DNA of 64,000 nucleotides from an uncultured Erysipelotrichaceae bacterium (lineage in GTDB: Bacteria > Bacillota_I > Bacilli_A > Erysipelotrichales > Erysipelotrichaceae). The stretch covers positions 14,231 through 78,230 of the forward strand of contig CACYXJ010000002.1 in NCBI GenBank assembly GCA_902778375.1, written 5' to 3'. Both the position numbers and the translations under genes were made by a program. Each line of letters begins with the position of its first letter. The first letter of the stretch is position 1. Positions 12,979 through 53,670 of the stretch are shown piece by piece. Under the pieces are notes generated by a model. That model searched no databases and was not told the DNA's origin. It saw only the letters and a list, made by a program, of their open reading frames with translations.

Positions 12979-14538
12979 ATGCGAAACTGGCAGTCATTTT
13001 ATGAAATACTGAAATTTCCGCTCTGCGTGATTTTCTTTGCGGTCTGTCTGATTGGTCTGGGCAATCTGATCACCAATCCAGTATATGGATTCGCAGGTGT
13101 TTTCAGCGGGGATACATTGATTTCCTTCGGCGAACTGTTTATCAAAATCGGCCAGTTCCTGGTAGTCAATTTTCCGCTGCTGTTCCTGATCCGTCTGACG
13201 ACAAGACGCGGCGGTTCAGCTACCACGATCATGTCGGCTCTGTCCGGCTATGTCACATTCCTTGCCACGACTATGTACTTTGCCGATCCGGGACTGCCCT
13301 CAACTGTCTACAGCAGTATCCTTGGCTTGAGCGTCAACCGCACAAGTGTCGTCTCGCTGACCGGGGCCACGCATTATCCGCTGCAGACCGGACTGATCGG
13401 TGCGATCATTGTGACAATGATCACCCTTTGGTCCTTTAATGGTTCCCGCCGCAAGACGGAATACGGTTTCTTCTCGTTTGTTTCGAAAGAAATGTCGTGT
13501 GTATTGCGGACGGTATTCTTCAGTATCATTGCCGGCCTTGCAATGTCGTTTGTCTGGCCGTATGCGGTACAGTTTATCCAGCGCGTTGTTCACTTCATTT
13601 CGGTTGACACCAACAACCCGATCAATCTTGCTCTCTATGGAATCAGTGAGCGGCTGCTTGGCGTACTGGGACTTGGCACGGCGATCCGTCAGCCCTTCTG
13701 GTATGAAATCAGCGGTGGTTCCTGGGTCAACGCGGCCGGTATTTCGGTTTCCGGCGACGTCAATATCTGGACGGCACAGCTCGCTGCCAACGGTGTGACA
13801 GGCATGGCGGGAAGATTCTTCACGCCCTATTACATCCTGAATATCTTTGCCATGCCGGCGATGATCTGGGCGGCCTTCTCGCTCGATACCAATCCGATGG
13901 AAAAACGGCGCATGATCCTGTTGTGCATCATTGGTACCCTGGCTTCCCTGCTTTGGGGAACACTGCTGCCGCTGGAACTGATTCTTCTGATTCTCTGCCC
14001 GCTGCTGTTTGCCTTCCATGTCTCATGCACCGGCATTCTGTATATGACCCTGCAGTCACTGCATATCTATCTTGGCTATCAGTCCACGGATACGATCACT
14101 TTGACAGCAAGACCCGGTTCCCTGCCGGAGTTCATCAGTTATATTCAGTATCCGGCGCTGGCCAGAAGTCTGATCGGAGTAGCTGTTGCCGGAATTATCA
14201 CCGGGGCAATCTATTTCCTGGTTACCCGGCTGTACTTTCGGTATCTGGCAATGGATCTCTTCAAGACCGGCAGTAAGGACGAAGTGATCAGTGCTGTAAT
14301 CAAGGCGGCCGGCGGAATCGAAAACATCAAAATGACCAATTCTTCGATTGCCAAGCTGACCCTGAGTGTCTATGATCCGGGCAAGGTCGATGTGCAGAGG
14401 CTGAGGAGGCTTGGGTCGCACAGGATCTATGAAAACCGTGCCGGCTTCAATATCTGTTTCGGTGCCCCAAGCACGATGATCCGTCTCGGTATCGACAGCG
14501 CCATGCGTGATGCCGTGCGGGAAGTCAACCGGATGTAA
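12979..14538 (+). CDS. Glucose-family PTS EIICB-like membrane protein, divergent; EIIB catalytic Cys absent
   Basis: EIIC-like TM region ('ERLLGVLGLGTAIRQPFW', 'GRFFTPYY'); C-terminal EIIB-like 'GGIENIKMTNSSIAKLTLSVYD'. Confidence 0.75.
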   Translation: MRNWQSFYEILKFPLCVIFFAVCLIGLGNLITNPVYGFAGVFSGDTLISFGELFIKIGQFLVVNFPLLFLIRLTTRRGGSATTIMSALSGYVTFLATTMYFADPGLPSTVYSSILGLSVNRTSVVSLTGATHYPLQTGLIGAIIVTMITLWSFNGSRRKTEYGFFSFVSKEMSCVLRTVFFSIIAGLAMSFVWPYAVQFIQRVVHFISVDTNNPINLALYGISERLLGVLGLGTAIRQPFWYEISGGSWVNAAGISVSGDVNIWTAQLAANGVTGMAGRFFTPYYILNIFAMPAMIWAAFSLDTNPMEKRRMILLCIIGTLASLLWGTLLPLELILLILCPLLFAFHVSCTGILYMTLQSLHIYLGYQSTDTITLTARPGSLPEFISYIQYPALARSLIGVAVAGIITGAIYFLVTRLYFRYLAMDLFKTGSKDEVISAVIKAAGGIENIKMTNSSIAKLTLSVYDPGKVDVQRLRRLGSHRIYENRAGFNICFGAPSTMIRLGIDSAMRDAVREVNRM

Positions 14539-28209: not shown

Positions 28210-29256
28210 TCAGCGCAAAGACTGATCCATGCCTGCAATCATCCGTTCGTACAGCATCAGCAGATCCCCTGTAGGGCGCCAGCCAAGTGCTGTCAATGCG
28301 CTGATATCAAGATTCAGATAGGATGGAGCAGGATATTTTGAAGTGTCTCCGTTCTCTGCTGTACGGACAGAAATCCTGTTGCGGCCTATTTTTTCAGCAA
28401 CCATTTCTGCCATCTCATAAATAGAACAATATGTGTCCGGGTTTGCAGCGTTGTATACGGAACCGGGAACACCCTTAAGAAGCACAGTGAGAACAGCAGT
28501 GACAGCCTGGGCAGTATACAGATAGGAATGTCTGCTGTTGCCTTTTGTCTGCAGTATAATGTCTTCTTTTGCCAGCGCATTGCGAGCCATCATGGCAAAG
28601 ACTCTCTGATCATTACGGGAAATGCCCGGGCCAAAAGTCTGGGACAGCCGGACAGAACAGGCAGGGACTCTGTATTCTGTTGCGTAAGCGTGGCACATTG
28701 CCTCGCACATGCGCTTGCATTCCGGGTAGCAGCTTCTGGTTTCGGCCGGATTCAGATATCCAAGATCAGCCTCTTTTAAAGGAGCTTCGCTCAAGACGGT
28801 TCCATAGGCTTCCATGCTGGAAAGATATACAAACCCCTTCACGCATTTTTCTTTTGCAAGCCCAAGAAGGTTCATTGTTCCGAGCACACCGGCCTGAATC
28901 GTTTCGACAGGCTGATTCATGAAGAATCTGCTGGAGGTAGGGCTGGCGGCGTGAACGATATAGTCGACAGGTTCTGTTATTACCGGCAGATTTTCAACGG
29001 ACCCTTTCAGCAGAACAAGACCTTCATCCTGCCTGAGCATGGATTTTGCTTTTTCCGAGTTTCTAACGACTGCAAGTATGCGGGTATGAAACCCTCTGGT
29101 CTGGTTTGCATACAGCAAAGCATTGATCAGAGTTGAACCGATCAGTCCTGTTCCACCGCTGATCAGTACAGTTGCAGTCTGCAGATTCTCAAAAGGGATG
29201 AAATCCGACTGCAGGATGTATTCATAGTCTTCAATGTAAACAGAAGTATTACTCAT
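28210..29256 (-). CDS. NAD-dependent epimerase/dehydratase (SDR extended), likely reductase partner of the IspD-like enzyme
   Basis: 'GGTGLIG', 'HAASPTS', 'YPECKR' (YxxxK). Confidence 0.8.
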   Translation of the reverse strand: MSNTSVYIEDYEYILQSDFIPFENLQTATVLISGGTGLIGSTLINALLYANQTRGFHTRILAVVRNSEKAKSMLRQDEGLVLLKGSVENLPVITEPVDYIVHAASPTSSRFFMNQPVETIQAGVLGTMNLLGLAKEKCVKGFVYLSSMEAYGTVLSEAPLKEADLGYLNPAETRSCYPECKRMCEAMCHAYATEYRVPACSVRLSQTFGPGISRNDQRVFAMMARNALAKEDIILQTKGNSRHSYLYTAQAVTAVLTVLLKGVPGSVYNAANPDTYCSIYEMAEMVAEKIGRNRISVRTAENGDTSKYPAPSYLNLDISALTALGWRPTGDLLMLYERMIAGMDQSLR

Positions 29257-29261
29257 TATTA

Positions 29262-29984
29262 TTACTCCAGGAACTGTTTATTCTCTTTGGCATCGATCAT
29301 TGCCCGGAAAATATAGAAATCCTCAGGGGTAGTGATCTTAATATTTTCAACAGGACCGACAACAGTATAGAGGTCATGACCGTAATGCTGCATCATACTG
29401 GCAGAATCAATAAAGGAAAGGCCATCTTTAATTGCTTTCCTGTGGGCTTCAAGGATTTCGCTGAGATAAAAACACTGCGGAGCTCTTGCCAGCATGCATT
29501 TGGAGCGGTCTATGATTGTTCCGACCTTATTGTCGACAGCGTCTGTTGTGATTGTCTCGATTGCCGGTGTAACTGTAATGGCAGAGTGATACTGTCTGGT
29601 ACAGTCGATTGCCCTGAGGATGGTATCTTCATTGATCAGCGGACGCACTCCGTCATGAATCAGAACAACAGCCTCATCTGGGTATTCTTTTCCGGCGGCA
29701 CAGAGGCCGTTATAAATGGATTCCTGTCCGGAGGATCCTCCTGCCACAATCGTTTTAACCTTGGACAGTTTATAGCGCTCGACCAGTTCGTAACAATAAC
29801 CGATCCAGTCTTTCAGGCTGACCAGAACGATACCGTCAATTGCATCACAATCCTGAAATCTTTCCAGAGTATAGACCAGAATCGGTTTTTCGTGCAGCTC
29901 CAGGAATTGTTTCGGTTTTGATTTTGAGTTCATCCGCTGTCCGGTTCCACCGGCAAATATCAAAGCTATGTTTTTCATATTCAT
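29262..29984 (-). CDS. IspD/TarI-family polyol-phosphate cytidylyltransferase
   Basis: 'AGGTGQRM..KPKQFL', 'IHDGVRP', 'NIKITTPED'. Confidence 0.88.
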   Translation of the reverse strand: MNMKNIALIFAGGTGQRMNSKSKPKQFLELHEKPILVYTLERFQDCDAIDGIVLVSLKDWIGYCYELVERYKLSKVKTIVAGGSSGQESIYNGLCAAGKEYPDEAVVLIHDGVRPLINEDTILRAIDCTRQYHSAITVTPAIETITTDAVDNKVGTIIDRSKCMLARAPQCFYLSEILEAHRKAIKDGLSFIDSASMMQHYGHDLYTVVGPVENIKITTPEDFYIFRAMIDAKENKQFLE

Positions 29985-40260: not shown

Positions 40261-42375
40261 ATGGGCTTTTTGGGACAGATACTGGGACCGTTCATGAGTT
40301 TTTGTTACAATCTGACAAAAAACTACGGCCTGGCAATTATATTATTCACTCTGATCAGTAAGTTTATTCTGCTTCCGATTTCGGTGTGGGTGCAGAAAAA
40401 CTCGATTACCATGGTGAAGATCGAGCCGGAAGTCAACCGGATCAAGATCAAGCATTTTGGTGACAAGGATACAATTGCTGAAGAACAGCAGAAACTTTAT
40501 AAAAAGGAACATTATAATCCGCTGGCATCCCTCGTACCGCTGATCGCCCAGATTGTTTTGCTGATGGGTGTTGTCGAGGTTATTTATCATCCTCTGGATT
40601 ATGTCCTGCGGGTACCGCAGCCGGTTGCTCAGGACATGATGAAAGTGACTCTGGAGAATGTGGATTTCCTGGATGAAGAATCCAGTTCGATTCAGATCTA
40701 TACAGTAGAGGATATTCAGGCGGGAAATGAAGCCGATTATCTGCAACTGCAGGAAAAATACCCGGATACGGATCTGCAGCCTGTCATCGATTCCTGTAAG
40801 AACTTCAATATGAAATTCCTGGGAATCGATCTGGGATGGATCGCATCTGAGGTCGGCGGTATTGCCCTGATTGCTCCGCTGCTGGCGGGTCTTTCCTCCC
40901 TGCTGCTGGCAATTGCCCAGAACAAAATCAATCCGTTGCAGGCAGAGCAGTCCAACGCCAATAAATACGGCATGCTGGCATTTTCTGTTGCGCTGTCGTT
41001 ATATCTTGGCATGTTTGTTCCGGCCGGTGTCGCACTTTACTGGGTTGCCAGCAACCTGATGGCGATCATCCAGCAGTGGCTGATGAACAAAGCCATTAAT
41101 CCGGAGAAATATGTTGACTATGAAGCTTTGGAGTCGACACGCGAAGAACTGAAATCGCTGTCCGGCGGAGACAAGAAACTGAAATTCAACGATCCGCTGG
41201 CGAAACGTGCGAAAGCAGACTATAAACGTTTCTTCTCGATCGAAAACAAGCACCTTGTTTTCTATTCAGAAAGCAACGGTTTCTATAAATACTTCAAGGG
41301 TATGATCGAATATATCCTGAAGTATACGAATATTCCTGTTCATTACATCACCAGTGATCCGAACGACCAGATCTTTGAACTGGCAAAAGAGAATGATCAG
41401 ATCAAGCCGTACTTCATCGATCCAATCACACTGATCACATTGATGATGAAGATGGATGCAGATGTTGTCGTCATGACAATGCCTGACCTTGAAACGTATC
41501 AGATCAAACGTTCCTATGTCCGCAAGGATATTGAATATATCAATATTTCCCATGGAATGGGATCCCTGAATATGACTTTCCGTAAGGGTGCCCTGGATCA
41601 TTTCGACACAGTATACGCATCCGGAAAGCATCAGAAGGAAGAACTGGAGAAACAGGAAGAATTCTATCATCTCCCGAAGAAGAATATTTTCGAAGGCGGC
41701 TATCCGCTGCTCGATGACATGCGGGCCAGTTATGCTGCTTCAGAAAAGCCGGTTCATGAGAAAAAACAGATTCTGATTGCTCCGTCATGGCAAAAGGACA
41801 ATATCGTTGACAGCTGTCTGGACGAAATTCTCGAGCAGTTGAAAGGACATGGCTATCAGATCACGGTCCGTCCGCATCCGCAGCATGTACGCCATATGCC
41901 GGAAAAGATGGAAGCGCTCAAGCAGAAGTTTGCCAACGATCATGATATTGAGATCCAGACCGACTTCTCCAAAACCAGCAATGTCTTTGAGGCCGATCTG
42001 ATGATTACCGACTGGTCGGATATTTCCCACGAATTTGCCTATACGACATACAAACCGGTTCTCTTTATCGATACTCCGATGAAGGTCATGAATCCGGAAT
42101 ATCAGAATATCGATACAGTTCCGATCAACATCTGGGTAAGAGATGAAATCGGTATGGTTGTCGGACTGGATAAACTGGACGAAATACCTGAAAAGGTTGA
42201 ATACATGCTGTCGCATACAGAAGAGTATCATGAGCGCATTGATAAACTTGCGCACGAATATGTATATCACCTTGACGAAAGTGTGCCTTATGATGCCCGC
42301 TATATTATCGAGGCGGTATTCAGAAAAGTAGAAGAAAGAAACGGTGTAAAAGCAGAAAATGTACAGACTGCTTAA
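40261..42375 (+). CDS. Fusion: YidC/Oxa1 insertase + TagF-like (CDP-glycerol glycerophosphotransferase-type) domain
   Basis: YidC 'NYGLAIILFTLISKFILLP', 'EEQQKLYKKEHYNPL', 'GVALYWVASN'; TagF-like 'SHG', 'GYP.LD', 'APSW', 'RPHP', 'DLMITDWSDI'. Confidence 0.82.
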   Translation: MGFLGQILGPFMSFCYNLTKNYGLAIILFTLISKFILLPISVWVQKNSITMVKIEPEVNRIKIKHFGDKDTIAEEQQKLYKKEHYNPLASLVPLIAQIVLLMGVVEVIYHPLDYVLRVPQPVAQDMMKVTLENVDFLDEESSSIQIYTVEDIQAGNEADYLQLQEKYPDTDLQPVIDSCKNFNMKFLGIDLGWIASEVGGIALIAPLLAGLSSLLLAIAQNKINPLQAEQSNANKYGMLAFSVALSLYLGMFVPAGVALYWVASNLMAIIQQWLMNKAINPEKYVDYEALESTREELKSLSGGDKKLKFNDPLAKRAKADYKRFFSIENKHLVFYSESNGFYKYFKGMIEYILKYTNIPVHYITSDPNDQIFELAKENDQIKPYFIDPITLITLMMKMDADVVVMTMPDLETYQIKRSYVRKDIEYINISHGMGSLNMTFRKGALDHFDTVYASGKHQKEELEKQEEFYHLPKKNIFEGGYPLLDDMRASYAASEKPVHEKKQILIAPSWQKDNIVDSCLDEILEQLKGHGYQITVRPHPQHVRHMPEKMEALKQKFANDHDIEIQTDFSKTSNVFEADLMITDWSDISHEFAYTTYKPVLFIDTPMKVMNPEYQNIDTVPINIWVRDEIGMVVGLDKLDEIPEKVEYMLSHTEEYHERIDKLAHEYVYHLDESVPYDARYIIEAVFRKVEERNGVKAENVQTA

Positions 42376-46409: not shown

Positions 46410-47330
46410 ATGAAGGTGTTTGTAACAGGTGTCGGCGGCCAGCTGGGTCACGATGTCATAAATGAATTGTATAAAAGAGGATATGAAGGTGTCGGCAGCG
46501 ATATTCAGCCTGCGTACAGCGGTGTACAGGATGGAACGGCTGTAACAACAGCACCGTATTTCCCGCTGGATATTACCGATCCGGAAGCAGTCGGGAAAGT
46601 AATCAGGGAAGTAAATCCGGATGTCGTCATTCATTGTGCCGCCTGGACGGCAGTGGATATGGCGGAAGATGATGACAAGGTGGAGAAAGTACGTGCGATC
46701 AACGCCGGCGGAACGCAGAACATTGCCAATGTCTGTAAGGAACTTGACTGCAAGATGGTCTATATCTCCACGGATTATGTCTTTGACGGCCAGGGAGAAA
46801 CACCATGGGATCCAGACTGTAAAGACTATAAGCCTTTGAATGTCTACGGTCAGACAAAGCTGGAAGGCGAACTTGCTGTGGCAAATACACTGGATAAATA
46901 CTTTATTGTCCGGATTGCCTGGGTATTTGGCCTGAACGGGAAGAACTTTATCAAAACCATGCTCAATGTCGGAAAGAAGTATGATACCGTGCGGGTCGTT
47001 AATGACCAGTTCGGAACGCCGACGTATACTCTGGACCTGGCCAGACTGCTTGTCGATATGATCGAAACTGAAAAATACGGGTACTATCATGCGACCAACG
47101 AAGGCGGATATATCTCCTGGTATGACTTCACCTGCGAAATCTTCAGACAGGCGGGGTATACAACAAAAGTCGTTCCGGTTACAACTGAAGAATACGGCTT
47201 AAGCAAAGCAGCCAGACCAACCAACAGCCGCCTGGATAAATCCAAGCTGGTAAAGAATGGTTTTGAACCTTTGCCGACATGGCAGGATGCGCTGGCAAGA
47301 TATTTAATACAGATAAAAGACTCTGAATGA
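46410..47330 (+). CDS. rmlD: dTDP-4-dehydrorhamnose reductase
   Basis: 'GVGGQLG', 'HCAAWTAVD', 'ISTDYVFDG', 'YGQTK', 'GTPTYT', 'AARPTNSRLD'. Confidence 0.92.
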   Translation: MKVFVTGVGGQLGHDVINELYKRGYEGVGSDIQPAYSGVQDGTAVTTAPYFPLDITDPEAVGKVIREVNPDVVIHCAAWTAVDMAEDDDKVEKVRAINAGGTQNIANVCKELDCKMVYISTDYVFDGQGETPWDPDCKDYKPLNVYGQTKLEGELAVANTLDKYFIVRIAWVFGLNGKNFIKTMLNVGKKYDTVRVVNDQFGTPTYTLDLARLLVDMIETEKYGYYHATNEGGYISWYDFTCEIFRQAGYTTKVVPVTTEEYGLSKAARPTNSRLDKSKLVKNGFEPLPTWQDALARYLIQIKDSE

Positions 47331-47346
47331 AAGGTAAGTGATGGAG

Positions 47347-48423
47347 ATGCTTAATTTTACAGTCGGACCGGTAATGAGCAACGAAGAGGTCCGTGCAATT
47401 GGCGGGGAACAGGTACCGTATTTCCGAACAGCAGAGTTTTCGGAACTGATGCTGGAAAACGAAAGACTGATGAAGAAATTCGCAAAGGCAGATGAAGGTG
47501 CGAGAGTAGTTTTCATTACCGGCTCAGGAAGTGCATCGATGGAAGCCAGCGTAATGAACAGCTTTACGCAGCAGGACAAGGTGCTGGTTGTCAATGGCGG
47601 CAGTTTCGGTGCCCGTTTTGTAAAACTGTGCTGTGATGTTCATGAGATTCCGTTCTCTGAAATCAAACTAAGACCGGGACAGAAACTGACGGAAGATCAT
47701 CTGAAACCGTATGACGGACAGGGATATACCGGTTTCCTGGTAAATGTCGATGAAACATCTACAGGTGTTTTATATGATATGGAAATGATCGGCAGATTCT
47801 GCAGAAGGAACAACCTGTTCTTGGTGGCAGACTGTGTCAGCGCGTTCCTGGCGGACCCGTTCAACATGGCAGAAATCGGCGCTGATATTATGATTACCGG
47901 CTCACAGAAGGCACTTGCCTGTCCGCCCGGCATTTCGGTAATCGTTCTGAGCAAAAGGGCGGTCGAGCGGGTCAATCAGATGCATGTCAGGTCACTCTAT
48001 TTCGACCTGAAGGATTCGTTGAAGAACGGGGAAAGAGGACAGACTCCTTTTACTCCGGCAGTATCTGTACTCCGACAGATCAATGCAAGACTCAGGGAAA
48101 TAGAAAGAAACGGCGGCGTGGATACGGAAACAGCCAAGATTGCGGCTCTTGCGGCAGATTTCAGGGAAAAGATCAAAGAACTTCCTTTTGAGTTTGTTTC
48201 CGAAAGCCCGGCCAACGGTGTTACTCCGCTGCATCCGTTGAATGTATCGGCATATGACATCTTCCTTGAACTGAAAGACAACTATAATATCTGGATCTGC
48301 CCGAATGGGGGCGAACTGAAAGATACGGTGCTCAGAGTCGGTCATCTCGGCGACCTGGCACCGGAAGACAACACAACTTTGATCAATGCACTGAAAGACA
48401 TGCAGAGCAGAGGATTGTTATGA
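47347..48423 (+). CDS. Class V PLP-dependent aminotransferase
   Basis: 'FTVGP', 'GSGSASME', 'ETSTG', 'DCVS', PLP lysine in 'GSQKAL'. Start could be 47338/47341. Confidence 0.85.
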
Positions 48424-49724
48424 CGAAAGTAATCACTTACGGAACATATGATCTGATGCATTATGGCCATGTCCGTCTGCTTGAGCGTGCAAAAGCGCTG
48501 GGAGACTATCTGATTGTCGGTGTTACCGCTGAAGATTTCGACAAGCAGCGCGGCAAGATCAATGTCAAGCAGTCGCTGGAAGAAAGAATTGCCAATGTCA
48601 GGGCGACCGGGCTTGCGGATCAGATCATTGTCGAAGAATATGAAGGTCAGAAAATAGATGACATCAAACGATATGATGTTGATATTTTTACAGTAGGATC
48701 TGACTGGGTCGGTGTGTTTGACTACCTGAATGAATACTGCAAGGTTGTATATCTTGACAGAACCCAGGGTATTTCAAGCACACAGCTGCGCCAGGAAAAC
48801 TCCGTGAAAATCGGTATTGTCGGCGCATCCAGAGTTGTCAATAAATTCGGCAATGAATGCGGATATGTGAATGGCATCGAGGTCGCCGGTGTATGTACCG
48901 ATAATACCAAGGTGCTGTCCGAAGAACTTCAGGGAGCAGAACTGACAGGCGATTTCACCCAGCTTCTGACCAAGGTTGATGCTGTTTATATCTATTCCAC
49001 GCCGGAACTTCATTATGATCAGGCAAAGCAGGCGCTGCTTGCAGGAAAACATGTATTATGTGAATCCCCGATCGCATTGAAGAAAGAGCAGTGTATTGAA
49101 CTGTTTCAGATTGCGAAAGAAAAAGGACTTGTTTTGCAGGAATCCATTAAAACAGCATATTCGCTGGCATATTCCCGGCTGGTACTGCTGGCAAAAGGCG
49201 GGAAAATAGGCAAAATCGTTTCAGTGGATACAAGCTGCACAAGTCTGAAGGATCTTCCGGAAGGCTGGGGCAGCCTGGATGACTGGGGACCGACAGCAAT
49301 GCTGCCGGTGCTTCAGCTGCTGGGCACAGATTACAGAAGCATAGAAGTTCTGTCGCAGTTCAACGAGGAAACCGGATTTGATTCATTTACAAAGGTTAAT
49401 TTCCGGTATGACCATTCAGTTGCATCTGTTAAAGTCGCAAACGGTGTTAAGTCCGAGGGAGAACTGATTGTGTCCGGTACAAAGGGATATATTTATGTTC
49501 CTGCTCCGTGGTGGAAAACAGACTATTTCGAAGTCCGGTTTGAGAATCCCGACAACAACAAACGCTATTTCTACCAGCTGGATGGAGAAGGAATCCGGTT
49601 TGCAATTGTTTCCTTCATAAAGGCGATCGAAGGAATACAAAGCACAGGATATATTGAAGAGAGCGTTTCGGAAGCCATTTCAGGCGTTATCGAGTATTCA
49701 AAGGAAAACGCAATAGTACTCTGA
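48420..49724 (+). CDS. Fusion: TagD-like cytidylyltransferase + Gfo/Idh/MocA oxidoreductase
   Basis: '[11 protein letters not shown]', 'RTQGISST'; then 'IGIVGA', 'GKHVLCESP'. Confidence 0.85.
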
Positions 49725-49747
49725 ACAGGATGAATATCACCGGAAAG

Positions 49748-49778
49748 TAAATCTGCTTTGACTGCAGATTTATTTTTT
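49748..49778 (+). terminator. Terminator
   Basis: TAAATCTGC...GCAGATTTA followed by T6. Confidence 0.65.
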
Positions 49779-49864
49779 GAGTCGTACAATCAGAAAGTCA
49801 GAATCAATACAGACAAGAATAAAATATAGGTTTAGGGTACAATAGAGGAGATAAAGAGGTAGTT

Positions 49865-50473
49865 ATGGGACAGATTGCAGTAGAAAAAAACGTAGGAGGC
49901 ATTGAAGGCCTTTGCATAATCACCCCGGCAGTACACGGAGACAGCCGCGGGTACTTTATGGAAACATACAGTCAGCGTGATATGGAAGAAGCAGGAATCA
50001 ACATCATATTTGTGCAGGACAATCAGTCGATGAGTACAAAAGGTGTTTTAAGAGGTCTTCACTTCCAGAAGAACTATCCGCAGACCAAACTTGTCAGAGT
50101 CATAAAAGGTTCTGTTTATGATGTTGCGGTCGATTTGAGGGCTGATTCCGCAACATACGGCAAATGGTTTGGCGTGGAGCTGACGGAAGAAAACAAGAAA
50201 CAGTTCCTGATTCCGCGCGGATTCGCACATGGTTTTCTGGTATTGTCCGATACAGCTGAGTTCTGCTACAAATGCGATGACTTTTATCATCCGAATGATG
50301 AAGGCGGCATGGCATGGAACGATCCGGAAATCGGTGTGGTATGGCCGCAGCTGAAAGGTGAGTATAACGGTACGGCAAGCGCTGAAGGCTATACCATGGA
50401 AGACGGAACGTTGCTGAATCTTTCAGAAAAAGACCAGAAGTGGCTGGGGCTGAAAGACACTTTCAAATTCTGA
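49865..50473 (+). CDS. rmlC: dTDP-4-dehydrorhamnose 3,5-epimerase
   Basis: 'DSRGYFME', 'QDNQS', 'GVLRGLHFQ', 'VAVDLR', 'FAHGF'. Confidence 0.93.
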   Translation: MGQIAVEKNVGGIEGLCIITPAVHGDSRGYFMETYSQRDMEEAGINIIFVQDNQSMSTKGVLRGLHFQKNYPQTKLVRVIKGSVYDVAVDLRADSATYGKWFGVELTEENKKQFLIPRGFAHGFLVLSDTAEFCYKCDDFYHPNDEGGMAWNDPEIGVVWPQLKGEYNGTASAEGYTMEDGTLLNLSEKDQKWLGLKDTFKF

Positions 50474-50481
50474 GGCAGAAG

Positions 50482-51264
50482 ATGGATCATTCGTTTGTAA
50501 TATGCGCATATAAGGAAAGCCGGTATCTTGAGGAATGTATTAAATCGTTAAAAGAGCAGGTGGAAGAATCTGTTGTTTTAATGGTTACCTCAACACCGAA
50601 TGCGTATATTTCCGGTCTGGCTGAGCAGTATGATATTCCTCTTTATATCAATGAAGGAGAATCCGGGATTACCCAGGACTGGAACTTCGGCTACAGTAAG
50701 GCAAAGACAAAATATATAACGATTGCCCATCAGGATGATATTTACTGCAGAACATACTCCAGAACGGTTCTGCAGCGGCTGCGCAGCAATCCGGATGCTC
50801 TGATTGCCTTTACGGATTACGGAGAACTTCGCGGCCAGCAGACTGTTGAAAGCAATATCAACCTGATAATCAAAAGAATTCTGTTATCCCCGCTGAAAGT
50901 AAAAGAGTTCAGGAAAGTCAATTCCATAAAGCACAGAGTGCTGTCACTGGGCAATCCAATCTGCTGTCCGGCAGTCACTTTCAATTCCGAACTGCTTCCT
51001 GAACAGGTGTTTGCAAATCATTTCCGAAGCAATGAAGACTGGGAAGCGTGGGAAAAGATTGCCCGGCGGGAAGGTTCGTTTGAATATATTCCGGAAGTTC
51101 AGATGTATCACAGAATTCATGAAGAATCAGAGACCTCAGCGATTATAGGTGATAACAGCAGGTCAAAAGAGGATTATGAAATGTTTATAAAGTTCTGGCC
51201 GGAGCTTATTGCAAAAGGACTGACAAAGCTTTATTCTCTGAGCGAGAAATCAAACCAGTTATGA
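50482..51264 (+). CDS. GT2-family glycosyltransferase
   Basis: 'VICAYKE', 'IAHQDD', 'EDWEAW', 'HRIHEESET'. Confidence 0.82.
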   Translation: MDHSFVICAYKESRYLEECIKSLKEQVEESVVLMVTSTPNAYISGLAEQYDIPLYINEGESGITQDWNFGYSKAKTKYITIAHQDDIYCRTYSRTVLQRLRSNPDALIAFTDYGELRGQQTVESNINLIIKRILLSPLKVKEFRKVNSIKHRVLSLGNPICCPAVTFNSELLPEQVFANHFRSNEDWEAWEKIARREGSFEYIPEVQMYHRIHEESETSAIIGDNSRSKEDYEMFIKFWPELIAKGLTKLYSLSEKSNQL

Positions 51265-51274
51265 GGGAACTGAT

Positions 51275-52183
51275 ATGAGTGAATATGATGAAATAACATT
51301 GAAAAGACTGCAGAGCATAGAACTGATGATCGTAAATGACCTGAAAAGGCTGTGTAAGAAACATGATCTTCAGTATTTTGGCTTTGCAGGAACCGGCATC
51401 GGAGTTCTGAGACACAAAGGTTTTATTCCCTGGGATGATGATATTGACATTGGGTTCCTCCGGCCGGATTATGAAAAATTTATCCAATATGCAAAGGAAG
51501 AACTGAACGACAAATACATTGTCATGAACGCTGAAACAGATCCGGATTATCCGCTTATGACGACCCGTCTTATGCTGAGAGGGACCAGATTCAGGGAAGA
51601 GGCTCTGAAAGATCTGAAATGTGAACTGGGTGTTTTCCTGGACCTGTATGCTTTTGATCAGGCCAGCGATGATGAAAAAGAGTTCAGAAAGCAATGCCGG
51701 GAAGCGTGGTGGTACAGTCATCTCATGATACTGAGAAGTATTCCTTTCCCGGTGCTTCCTGTGAAAGGGATAAAGGCAAAACTCGCTCATGCAGCTACTG
51801 CTGCAGTGTATGGCGGACTGACCCTTTTCCATGTATCCAAGACAAAGCTGGCACAGAAAGCCAAGGAGGCTGCCACAAGATTCAATAACGGACCAAAAAC
51901 AAAAAATGTTAATTTCTTTTTTGACACACTGCCTGATATGTGTGTGTACGGATACGATGAACTGTTTCCGCTGGTAGAACTTCCGTTTGAAAATACGACA
52001 TTATCATTCCCGAAAGAGCAGGACCGGTATCTGCGCTCCTTTTACGGCGATTACATGCAGCTGCCGCCGGCGGAGAACAGGAAAAACCACTATCCTCATG
52101 AACTGGATTTTGGTCCGTATAAAGATGTTCCGCTTGAAGAACTGAGAGATCCTGATAAGTACATCGATCCGGCAAAACTCTAA
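51275..52183 (+). CDS. LicD-family phosphotransferase
   Basis: 'GTGIGVLRHKGFIPWDDDIDIG', 'LDLY', 'YLRSFYGDYMQLPP'. Confidence 0.9.
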   Translation: MSEYDEITLKRLQSIELMIVNDLKRLCKKHDLQYFGFAGTGIGVLRHKGFIPWDDDIDIGFLRPDYEKFIQYAKEELNDKYIVMNAETDPDYPLMTTRLMLRGTRFREEALKDLKCELGVFLDLYAFDQASDDEKEFRKQCREAWWYSHLMILRSIPFPVLPVKGIKAKLAHAATAAVYGGLTLFHVSKTKLAQKAKEAATRFNNGPKTKNVNFFFDTLPDMCVYGYDELFPLVELPFENTTLSFPKEQDRYLRSFYGDYMQLPPAENRKNHYPHELDFGPYKDVPLEELRDPDKYIDPAKL

Positions 52184-52191
52184 GAATTTAT

Positions 52192-53670
52192 ATGGCTGAA
52201 AACGAAGTAAGAGTAAAAAAATCTGTTACCAGAAACGCAATGCTGAACATTATTAAAACGGTGATGTCTTTGGCATTTCCTTTAATAACGTTTCCGTATT
52301 CAGCGCGTGTTCTGGGCCTGACTGCTGTAGGCAAGTATAATTTTGCCAGTTCAATAGTAAGTTATTTTACTCTGCTTGCTGCACTTGGCTTTACGATGTA
52401 TGCAGTCCGGGAAGGCAGTAAATACCGTGACAATCAGAAAGACATTGATGAATTCAGCAGCGAAGTATTCTCGATTAATATCTATTCCATGCTGTTTGCC
52501 TGTTTACTGCTTTTAATAAGCATTCTGTTTATAGACAAACTGAAGGATTATACGATTCTGCTGCTGATCTTCGGATTCAGAATCGTATTGAACACAATCG
52601 GTGTCAACTGGGTTTTTACAATATTTGAGGATTTTACTTTTCCGGCAATTGCTTCATGTATTATGGAAGTCCTGTCGATTTCAATAATGCTTCTGTTTGT
52701 ACATTCGCCGGAGGATCTTTATATCTATGCCATCAGTTCGGTAATTGCCTATAACGGGGCGCATCTGCTGATGTTTCTGAATGTGGGGCGGTATGTAAAC
52801 CTCCGTTTTATTCCAAAACCGCCGATAAAGCATCTTAAACCGATTCTGATTATTTTTTCTCTTGAATTGGGTATGTCTATCTATGTCAATTCCGATCTGA
52901 CGATTCTTGGCTGGATGGAAGGTGATGACGCGGCAGGACTATACAGTACAGCGGCAACGATATACAGAATACTGAAGCAGATTCTCAACGCAATAATCAC
53001 GGTTGTTCTGCCCAGAATTGCCTATCATGTCAGCAAGGAAAAAGAAGCAAAGGATGCGGAAGGGTATGAAGTAAACCATAAAGAAGTGGTAGATCTGAGC
53101 AATCTGCTTGTTAATACTCTGGTCACTCTGGCACTCCCGATGATGGTCGGTATCTATGCTCTTGCCGAACCCATTGTCACATTGTTTGCAGGACCTGCAT
53201 TTCAGAACTCTGCGGAACCGCTGCAGCTGCTGTCGGTTGCAATTATATTTGCGGTACTGTCTACGTTCTTTGGAGAGAGCATATTAATGGCTTATAAACA
53301 GGAAAAGGAGTTTATGAAAGCCACTGCAATTTCGGCAGTGATCAATATTGTTCTGAATCTTCTTCTCATTCCGCATTTCCATATAAATGCCGCAGCATAT
53401 ACAACCATTGTTGCTGAAATGTTCATGCTGGTTTATACATATATAGAAGCAAGAAAACATGTAAGAACGAAAGTATCCGGTAATGTATTGATTTCAAGTG
53501 TTATCGGATGCGTTGCCATATATTTCATCTGCATGGGAGTAAAAACAATTATTGACTCTTCTGCTTTGTATATTTTGGTAAGTGTTGTTATCTCGGTGGC
53601 AGTGTACTTCGTTGTGCTGCTGCTGTTCAGGAATGATGCTCTTAGAGAACTGCTGAAGTTCAAAAATTAA
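52192..53670 (+). CDS. Wzx-type flippase
   Basis: 'LAFPLITFPYSARVLG', 'HLKPILIIF', 'GLYSTA', 'LPRIAY', ~12 TMs. Confidence 0.85.
   Translation: MAENEVRVKKSVTRNAMLNIIKTVMSLAFPLITFPYSARVLGLTAVGKYNFASSIVSYFTLLAALGFTMYAVREGSKYRDNQKDIDEFSSEVFSINIYSMLFACLLLLISILFIDKLKDYTILLLIFGFRIVLNTIGVNWVFTIFEDFTFPAIASCIMEVLSISIMLLFVHSPEDLYIYAISSVIAYNGAHLLMFLNVGRYVNLRFIPKPPIKHLKPILIIFSLELGMSIYVNSDLTILGWMEGDDAAGLYSTAATIYRILKQILNAIITVVLPRIAYHVSKEKEAKDAEGYEVNHKEVVDLSNLLVNTLVTLALPMMVGIYALAEPIVTLFAGPAFQNSAEPLQLLSVAIIFAVLSTFFGESILMAYKQEKEFMKATAISAVINIVLNLLLIPHFHINAAAYTTIVAEMFMLVYTYIEARKHVRTKVSGNVLISSVIGCVAIYFICMGVKTIIDSSALYILVSVVISVAVYFVVLLLFRNDALRELLKFKN

Follow-up and report, generated by a model that had tools for sequence, protein, structure and literature searches.

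A gene cassette that may supply a CDP-activated amino-alcohol head group, probably serinol phosphate, in a rhamnose wall-polysaccharide operon of a rumen bacterium

What is an aminotransferase doing in a rhamnose cell-wall polysaccharide operon, where its gene overlaps one that fuses a TagD-like cytidylyltransferase to a Gfo/Idh/MocA-like domain and lies upstream of a gene for a LicD-family phosphotransferase? The question is raised by a stretch of 64,000 nucleotides from contig CACYXJ010000002.1 of an uncultured Erysipelotrichaceae rumen bacterium (hereafter the window, i.e., the whole stretch). With roughly even confidence, we read these genes as a head-group module that would make and attach an amino-alcohol phosphate activated with cytidine triphosphate (CTP), probably serinol phosphate; the product with the best support is a head group that is activated as its cytidine diphosphate (CDP) derivative and passed on by LicD. 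An earlier reading made from the letters of the window alone (hereafter the sequence-only reading) had likewise proposed a CDP-amino-alcohol, and this part is supported, whereas its route of oxidation followed by transamination is disfavored by the missing catalytic residues of the Gfo domain, by sister cassettes that lack this domain altogether and by an alternative, HisC-like partner of a type that acts on free keto-phosphates.

The anatomy agrees with the sequence-only reading in its open reading frames, its Pfam domains and its overlap. The class V (AGXT-like) aminotransferase that depends on pyridoxal 5'-phosphate (PLP) is encoded on the plus strand at 47338-48423 (Pfam Aminotran_5, 72 bits), with candidate starts at GTG 47338, ATG 47341 and ATG 47347, the last being the one chosen earlier. 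Its TGA stop shares an ATGA with the start codon of the fusion gene (ttATGAcg, 48420-48423), which extends on the same strand from 48420 to 49724 and carries a CTP_transf_like domain at residues 5-125 (PF01467; TagD-like part at 48420-48800) followed by a GFO_IDH_MocA domain at residues 129-240 (PF01408; Gfo-like part at 48801-49724). LicD (51275-52183, plus strand) matches its family profile over the full length (PF04991, positions 1-227 of 227, 122 bits against a cut-off of 22.6) and is, as had been claimed, the third gene after the fusion, following rmlC and a family 2 glycosyltransferase (GT2) gene, although possibly in the next transcription unit because a hairpin intervenes.

Judged by its PLP lysine, its pyridine-nitrogen aspartate and its C-terminal substrate arginine, the aminotransferase is catalytically complete: K191 (within SQK), D165 and R333 are invariant in an alignment of 129 sequences, and K191 aligns with the catalytic lysine of PhnW, i.e., the residue mutated in PDB 9kka. 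The profile search against NCBIfam returned no curated equivalog above its cut-off, and the top match, PhnW-AepZ (TIGR03301), reached 149.4 bits against a required 360.8, which leaves the enzyme outside this family. Among solved structures, PDB 3f0h matches with an E value of 4.7e-170, and the PntC-aminotransferase fusion of PDB 6pd1 is a distant relative (E 2.4e-19). By analogy with the enzymes discussed below, the reaction would most likely be the conversion of dihydroxyacetone phosphate into serinol phosphate.

The cytidylyltransferase half retains the CTP-binding motifs as they have been defined for TagD (HxGH, RTxGISTT and Lys44/Lys46; PMC8262930), namely H14-Y-G-H17, R114-T-Q-G-I-S-S-T (RTxGISS) and K46, and TagD structures are its best PDB matches (E 1e-35). 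It is nevertheless not a canonical TagD by sequence criteria, scoring 113.7/116.4 bits against the 165.4 bits demanded by the TagD equivalog profile TIGR01518 and thus remaining outside it. Across 200 genomes of the same class these scores are bimodal, with stand-alone TagD proteins (129-167 residues) at 165-214 bits and fusion-type domains at 116-123 bits, and one genome, G840, holds both types. Relative to stand-alone TagD, the changes E39D, N41D, K44R (arginine in all fusions), a one-residue insertion, Trp74 to Glu and Asp93 to Ser are fixed, and the dimer-interface motif RYVDEVI is replaced by T-G-L-A-D-x-I-I, in which Arg has become G64 and Val A66. The new acidic residues would fit an amine-bearing substrate, and the loss of the dimer motif would fit a scaffold role of the Gfo half; the reaction proposed for this enzyme is the joining of CTP and an amino-alcohol phosphate to a CDP-amino-alcohol. 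Split forms of the cytidylyltransferase also occur among the relatives, most of them resembling fragments at contig ends. Two genomes that lack an aminotransferase match (G787 and G802) encode TagD-like domains of 76-82 bits in open reading frames of 486-512 residues, which may represent another kind of cytidylyltransferase fusion.

Does the combination recur elsewhere? Protein searches with the aminotransferase and with the fusion each returned at least 8000 candidates. Each of the best 120 fusion matches contains the two domains, with identities of 62-99 %, and the best 120 of the aminotransferase matches are 70-94 % identical. Gut and rumen bacteria often carry the cassette, so that the earlier label "new" applies to it as an uncharacterized system and not as a rare one. 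A scan of species-level genomes with the aminotransferase yielded 20 loci at 53 % identity or more, spanning Oscillospiraceae, Lachnospiraceae, Prevotellaceae, Fusobacterium, Saccharibacteria, "Tenericutes", Gastranaerophilaceae and Erysipelotrichaceae. The fusion lies directly 3' of the aminotransferase in 13 of these and is separated from it by a single gene in a 14th; the 14 paired loci belong to Oscillospiraceae, Lachnospiraceae, Fusobacterium, Saccharibacteria, "Tenericutes" and Erysipelotrichaceae, and at least 11 of the 20 have a LicD homologue no more than 10 kb away. For a sample of the class Bacilli, the fusion follows every aminotransferase orthologue of at least 56 % identity (7/7), and within the Erysipelotrichaceae sampled, 30 of 401 genomes contain a match at E 1e-50 or better. 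The sequence-only reading had staked its proposal on the three genes occurring together elsewhere, and this they do widely.

A further comparison concerns the aminotransferase that accompanies the fusion. Genome G840, from the same order as the window, retains the class V gene as a deletion remnant of two fragments (corresponding to residues 6-53 and 323-359), and a HisC-like class I/II aminotransferase is situated directly upstream of the fusion (locus L098; 4608-4918 and 6648-7706). This enzyme reaches 224 bits where the hisC profile requires 276.6; the true hisC (310 bits) is located elsewhere in the genome. Searching metagenomes with the HisC-like paralogue yielded 80 loci of at least 73 % identity, one of which was not assessable. 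The fusion directly follows the paralogue in 62 of them, directly precedes it in 11, is found within 4 kb in another five and is absent from one, i.e., adjacent or nearby in 78 of the 79 informative loci. Taken together, the displacement in G840 and the metagenomic linkage imply that the fusion needs an aminotransferase and that either of two families can serve. The fusion of L098 is followed by genes for a TarI-like cytidylyltransferase and an SDR protein. One metagenomic locus (L105, 1170-6049) combines the fusion and LicD with both the HisC-like and a full-length class V aminotransferase, and the two may be redundant or may differ in their roles.

The substrate type of HisC is a 2-oxopropyl phosphate, which is converted into a 2-aminopropyl phosphate, and dihydroxyacetone phosphate is the central metabolite of the same scaffold. 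Enzymes documented to transaminate it to (S)-serinol phosphate are Cj1437 of Campylobacter jejuni and RtxA, the relevant part of which is the N-terminal domain of the Bradyrhizobium protein. Because the chemistry of the HisC-like partner matches this conversion, we favor direct transamination, followed by activation with CTP and transfer by LicD. Accordingly worded as a pathway in which we infer every chemical step, the class V aminotransferase would aminate a central keto-phosphate, for which dihydroxyacetone phosphate is the likeliest candidate, and release an amino-alcohol phosphate whose likeliest identity is serinol phosphate; the fusion would, with its TagD-like half, join this product to CTP, yielding CDP-serinol; and LicD would move phospho-serinol onto a side-chain sugar, probably of a lipid-linked intermediate. 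The adjacent Wzx flippase would then export the decorated intermediate, and the outcome would be a cationic or zwitterionic substituent of the polysaccharide.

Several known systems come close to this scheme. With the TagD/TarD systems that feed transfer by LicD or TagF, the cassette shares the cytidylyltransferase fold, the motifs HxGH and RTxGISxT and K46, as well as, in our proposal, a CDP-alcohol that serves as donor for a LicD-family phosphotransferase encoded among cell-wall glycan genes; it differs in its score below the equivalog cut-off, the replaced RYVDEVI, N41D, the exchange of Trp74 for Glu, the Gfo-like fusion and the aminotransferase partner. The fusion of the cytidylyltransferase PntC to a 2-aminoethylphosphonate transaminase (PDB 6pd1/6pd2), which belongs to a phosphonate-tailoring system with LicD-like transferases, follows the same logic of a class V aminotransferase that supplies a small phosphorus-bearing amine, activation by a cytidylyltransferase and attachment of the LicD type. 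The similarity to 6pd1 is, however, as distant as stated above, the cytidylyltransferase of the cassette is of the TagD and not the LicC type, and the window genome yielded no phosphoenolpyruvate (PEP) mutase. Cj1437 and RtxA catalyze the first reaction proposed here, and the HisC-like replacement represents the same type of chemistry; the class V enzyme is likened to them by its proposed reaction. The fate of the product differs as well, as serinol phosphate in C. jejuni is amide-linked to glucuronate and then dephosphorylated, being neither activated with CTP nor joined by a phosphodiester, unlike in our proposal.

Could the amine be another one? Candidates whose carbon skeletons would also be compatible with the evidence are phosphoethanolamine, 2-aminoethylphosphonate, phosphoserine, the isomeric 3-amino-2-hydroxypropyl phosphate (from glyceraldehyde-3-phosphate) and an amino-pentitol phosphate, an alternative that we consider unlikely. 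PhnW-AepZ being the best NCBIfam match of the aminotransferase, the existence of a PntC-aminotransferase fusion in the PDB and the gene for the ethanolamine permease EutH that flanks the cassette in Fusobacterium all speak for it. On the other side, a profile search (TIGR02320) of the genome, which is 92 % complete, found no PEP mutase, which points to a phosphate ester rather than a phosphonate as the substrate, and we rejected the phosphonate route on this ground. The genome also encodes a true SerC (536 bits), so that phosphoserine needs no dedicated enzyme and is likewise disfavored. No central aldehyde or ketone is known to be transaminated to phosphoethanolamine, the HisC-like enzyme as alternative partner speaks for the 2-oxopropyl-phosphate scaffold, and a TagD-sized pocket would argue against pentitols.

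That the product carries a free amine at all is consistent with neighboring genes in related loci. Genes for GNAT acetyltransferases adjoin the cassette in four of them (L001, L012, L018 and L019), and the gene that separates aminotransferase and fusion in the 14th paired locus (L010, 11433-12755) encodes an opine (octopine/nopaline) dehydrogenase domain, which suggests that some bacteria N-carboxyalkylate the head group.

The role of the Gfo half bears on a second alternative along the lines of the sequence-only reading, in which the TagD half makes CDP-glycerol, the Gfo half oxidizes its C2 and the aminotransferase finally converts the CDP-bound ketone into CDP-serinol. Nucleotide sugars are commonly aminated in this order, with oxidation first and transamination second, and the physical fusion of a cytidylyltransferase to a Gfo/Idh/MocA fold would suit it. 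The Rossmann-domain profile is matched at 67.8 bits (cut-off 24), the glycines G132 and G135 are invariant, and S193-x-P195-x-x-H198 and many C-terminal residues are conserved among the fusions. An alignment to solved family members shows, however, that the family motif EKP reads ESP (E215-S216-P217), and in 134 fusions from distant taxa the lysine position is occupied by serine in 125 and by lysine in none; the Asp-x3-His/Tyr pair is missing too, with a variable Asp site and T292 at the His/Tyr site. By these catalytic residues the domain does not qualify as a Gfo/Idh/MocA oxidoreductase. The conserved residues together with the missing catalytic ones indicate a domain that is under selection and yet no canonical dehydrogenase, and on sequence grounds it is more likely a structural or oligomerization partner of the cytidylyltransferase. 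AGXT-like and HisC-like enzymes, moreover, take small phospho or carboxy compounds in free form, whereas ketones linked to a nucleotide usually fall to the DegT family.

Sister cassettes offer a further argument against amination of a CDP-bound ketone. Four loci (L011, L012, L015 and L017), with aminotransferases 59-63 % identical to that of the window, pair them with a stand-alone LicC-type nucleotidyltransferase without a Gfo domain, and so do two more distant loci (42 % identity). The aminotransferases of these Gfo-less cassettes form sister clades and are not nested with the window type, which weakens their use as proof that the Gfo domain is dispensable. On balance, we hold oxidation of CDP-glycerol prior to transamination to be distinctly improbable.

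Least probable of all appears a fusion that yields nothing but CDP-glycerol (or CDP-2-glycerol) as donor for transferases of the LicD or TagF type, next to an aminotransferase of unrelated or regulatory role: the intact HxGH, RTxGISS and K46, the TagD structures as best PDB matches, the lack of another TagD-type gene in a genome with a YidC-TagF fusion, and the pneumococcal precedent of a reductase, a cytidylyltransferase and a third enzyme yielding CDP-2-glycerol for the transferase WchX would fit it, but the subthreshold and bimodal TIGR01518 scores, the coexistence of the fusion with a canonical TagD in G840, the tight linkage of the fusion to each of two different aminotransferase families, the amine implied by the GNAT and opine dehydrogenase neighbors and the absence of an aminotransferase from the annotations of pneumococcal gtp1/2/3 all oppose it. 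The pneumococcal system itself (Gtp1/Gtp2/Gtp3 and WchX of Streptococcus pneumoniae serotypes 15 and 23) resembles the cassette in its three-enzyme donor pathway with a phosphotransferase beside rml genes. Compared by annotation only, its Gtp proteins are a dehydrogenase, a nucleotidyl transferase and a phosphotransferase, with no aminotransferase and a nitrogen-free product, and the idea that the cassette is a fused version of this pathway was dropped on these annotated names.

Several points weigh against direct transamination and CDP-serinol. The title of PDB 3f0h, "Aminotransferase", names no function, and the keto-phosphate has been assigned by analogy only. The Gfo half, with its strong conservation and the partial persistence of its Rossmann and S-x-P-x-x-H features, may have a non-canonical redox role. 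Since the aminotransferases of the Gfo-less cassettes belong to sister clades, the product of these cassettes may differ. A terminator-like hairpin stands between the aminotransferase-fusion pair and LicD. The genome, at its 92 % completeness, shows no other TagD-type enzyme. It does, however, encode a TagF-like domain, joined to YidC at 40261-42375, that possibly needs CDP-glycerol; the donor for this protein could instead be CDP-ribitol, supplied by a TarI/TarJ-like pair on the minus strand (28210-29984). Finally, the EutH gene in the Fusobacterium metagenome-assembled genome (L013; 8771-9976 and, with the downstream gene, 13043-13924) is directly upstream of the pair, which may be accidental or may hint that an amine is imported. 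Downstream of the same pair is a gene for an amino-acid permease.

Small phosphate-linked head groups, among them phosphocholine, glycerol phosphate and aminoethylphosphonate, determine which charge a bacterial surface carries, how phages recognize it and what immune properties it has. With a cationic amine next to a phosphate the polymer would be zwitterionic, and zwitterionic polymers have been linked to immunomodulation by gut commensals. A farther-reaching claim, that several phyla of gut and rumen bacteria share an undescribed CDP-serinol decoration whose donor stems from a TagD-derived enzyme on a pseudo-dehydrogenase scaffold, whose amine comes from either of two aminotransferase families and whose wall or capsule polymers are zwitterionic, we regard as somewhat short of an even chance. 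The literature searched contains no mention of CDP-serinol, of a phospho-serinol decoration or of this combination of genes. The cassette is very common, and a solved structure (3f0h) with a functionless title exists. A fusion that accepts either of two aminotransferase families offers a clear and cheap biochemical test.

The surrounding locus is in keeping with a wall-polysaccharide operon. Every gene across 40261-60884 is on the plus strand, densely packed. Upstream of the cassette, rmlD (dTDP-4-dehydrorhamnose reductase; 46410-47330, plus strand; Pfam RmlD_sub_bind, E 2.4e-90) ends 7 nucleotides before the aminotransferase. Downstream follow, all on the plus strand, rmlC (dTDP-4-dehydrorhamnose 3,5-epimerase; 49865-50473; dTDP_sugar_isom, E 1.9e-70), the GT2 gene (50440-51264; Glycos_transf_2, E 3.6e-10) and, starting 8 nucleotides past licD, the gene for the Wzx-type flippase (52192-53670; Polysacc_synt, E 1.4e-29), beyond which Pfam domains indicate further GT2s and a TagG/TagH-like ABC exporter. 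The wider locus also codes for the YidC-TagF fusion, LtaS-like proteins, LicC paralogues and the TarI/TarJ-like pair. The hairpin between the fusion gene and rmlC (about 49738-49780, plus strand) has a free energy of -19.8 kcal/mol (z -4.9), a stability reached by none of 200 shuffles, and is followed by a U-run. It may split the operon or attenuate expression, as such a strong structure with its U-run could place rmlD, the aminotransferase and the fusion in a transcription unit separate from that of rmlC, GT2, licD and wzx. A TACAAT-like box comes after it. Homologues of the window GT2 (35-41 % identity by tblastn) accompany LicD and aminotransferase genes in two of the Gfo-less loci, L015 and L017, and the LicD proteins encoded there, in loci that also bear the aminotransferase, are 45-46 % identical to that of the window.

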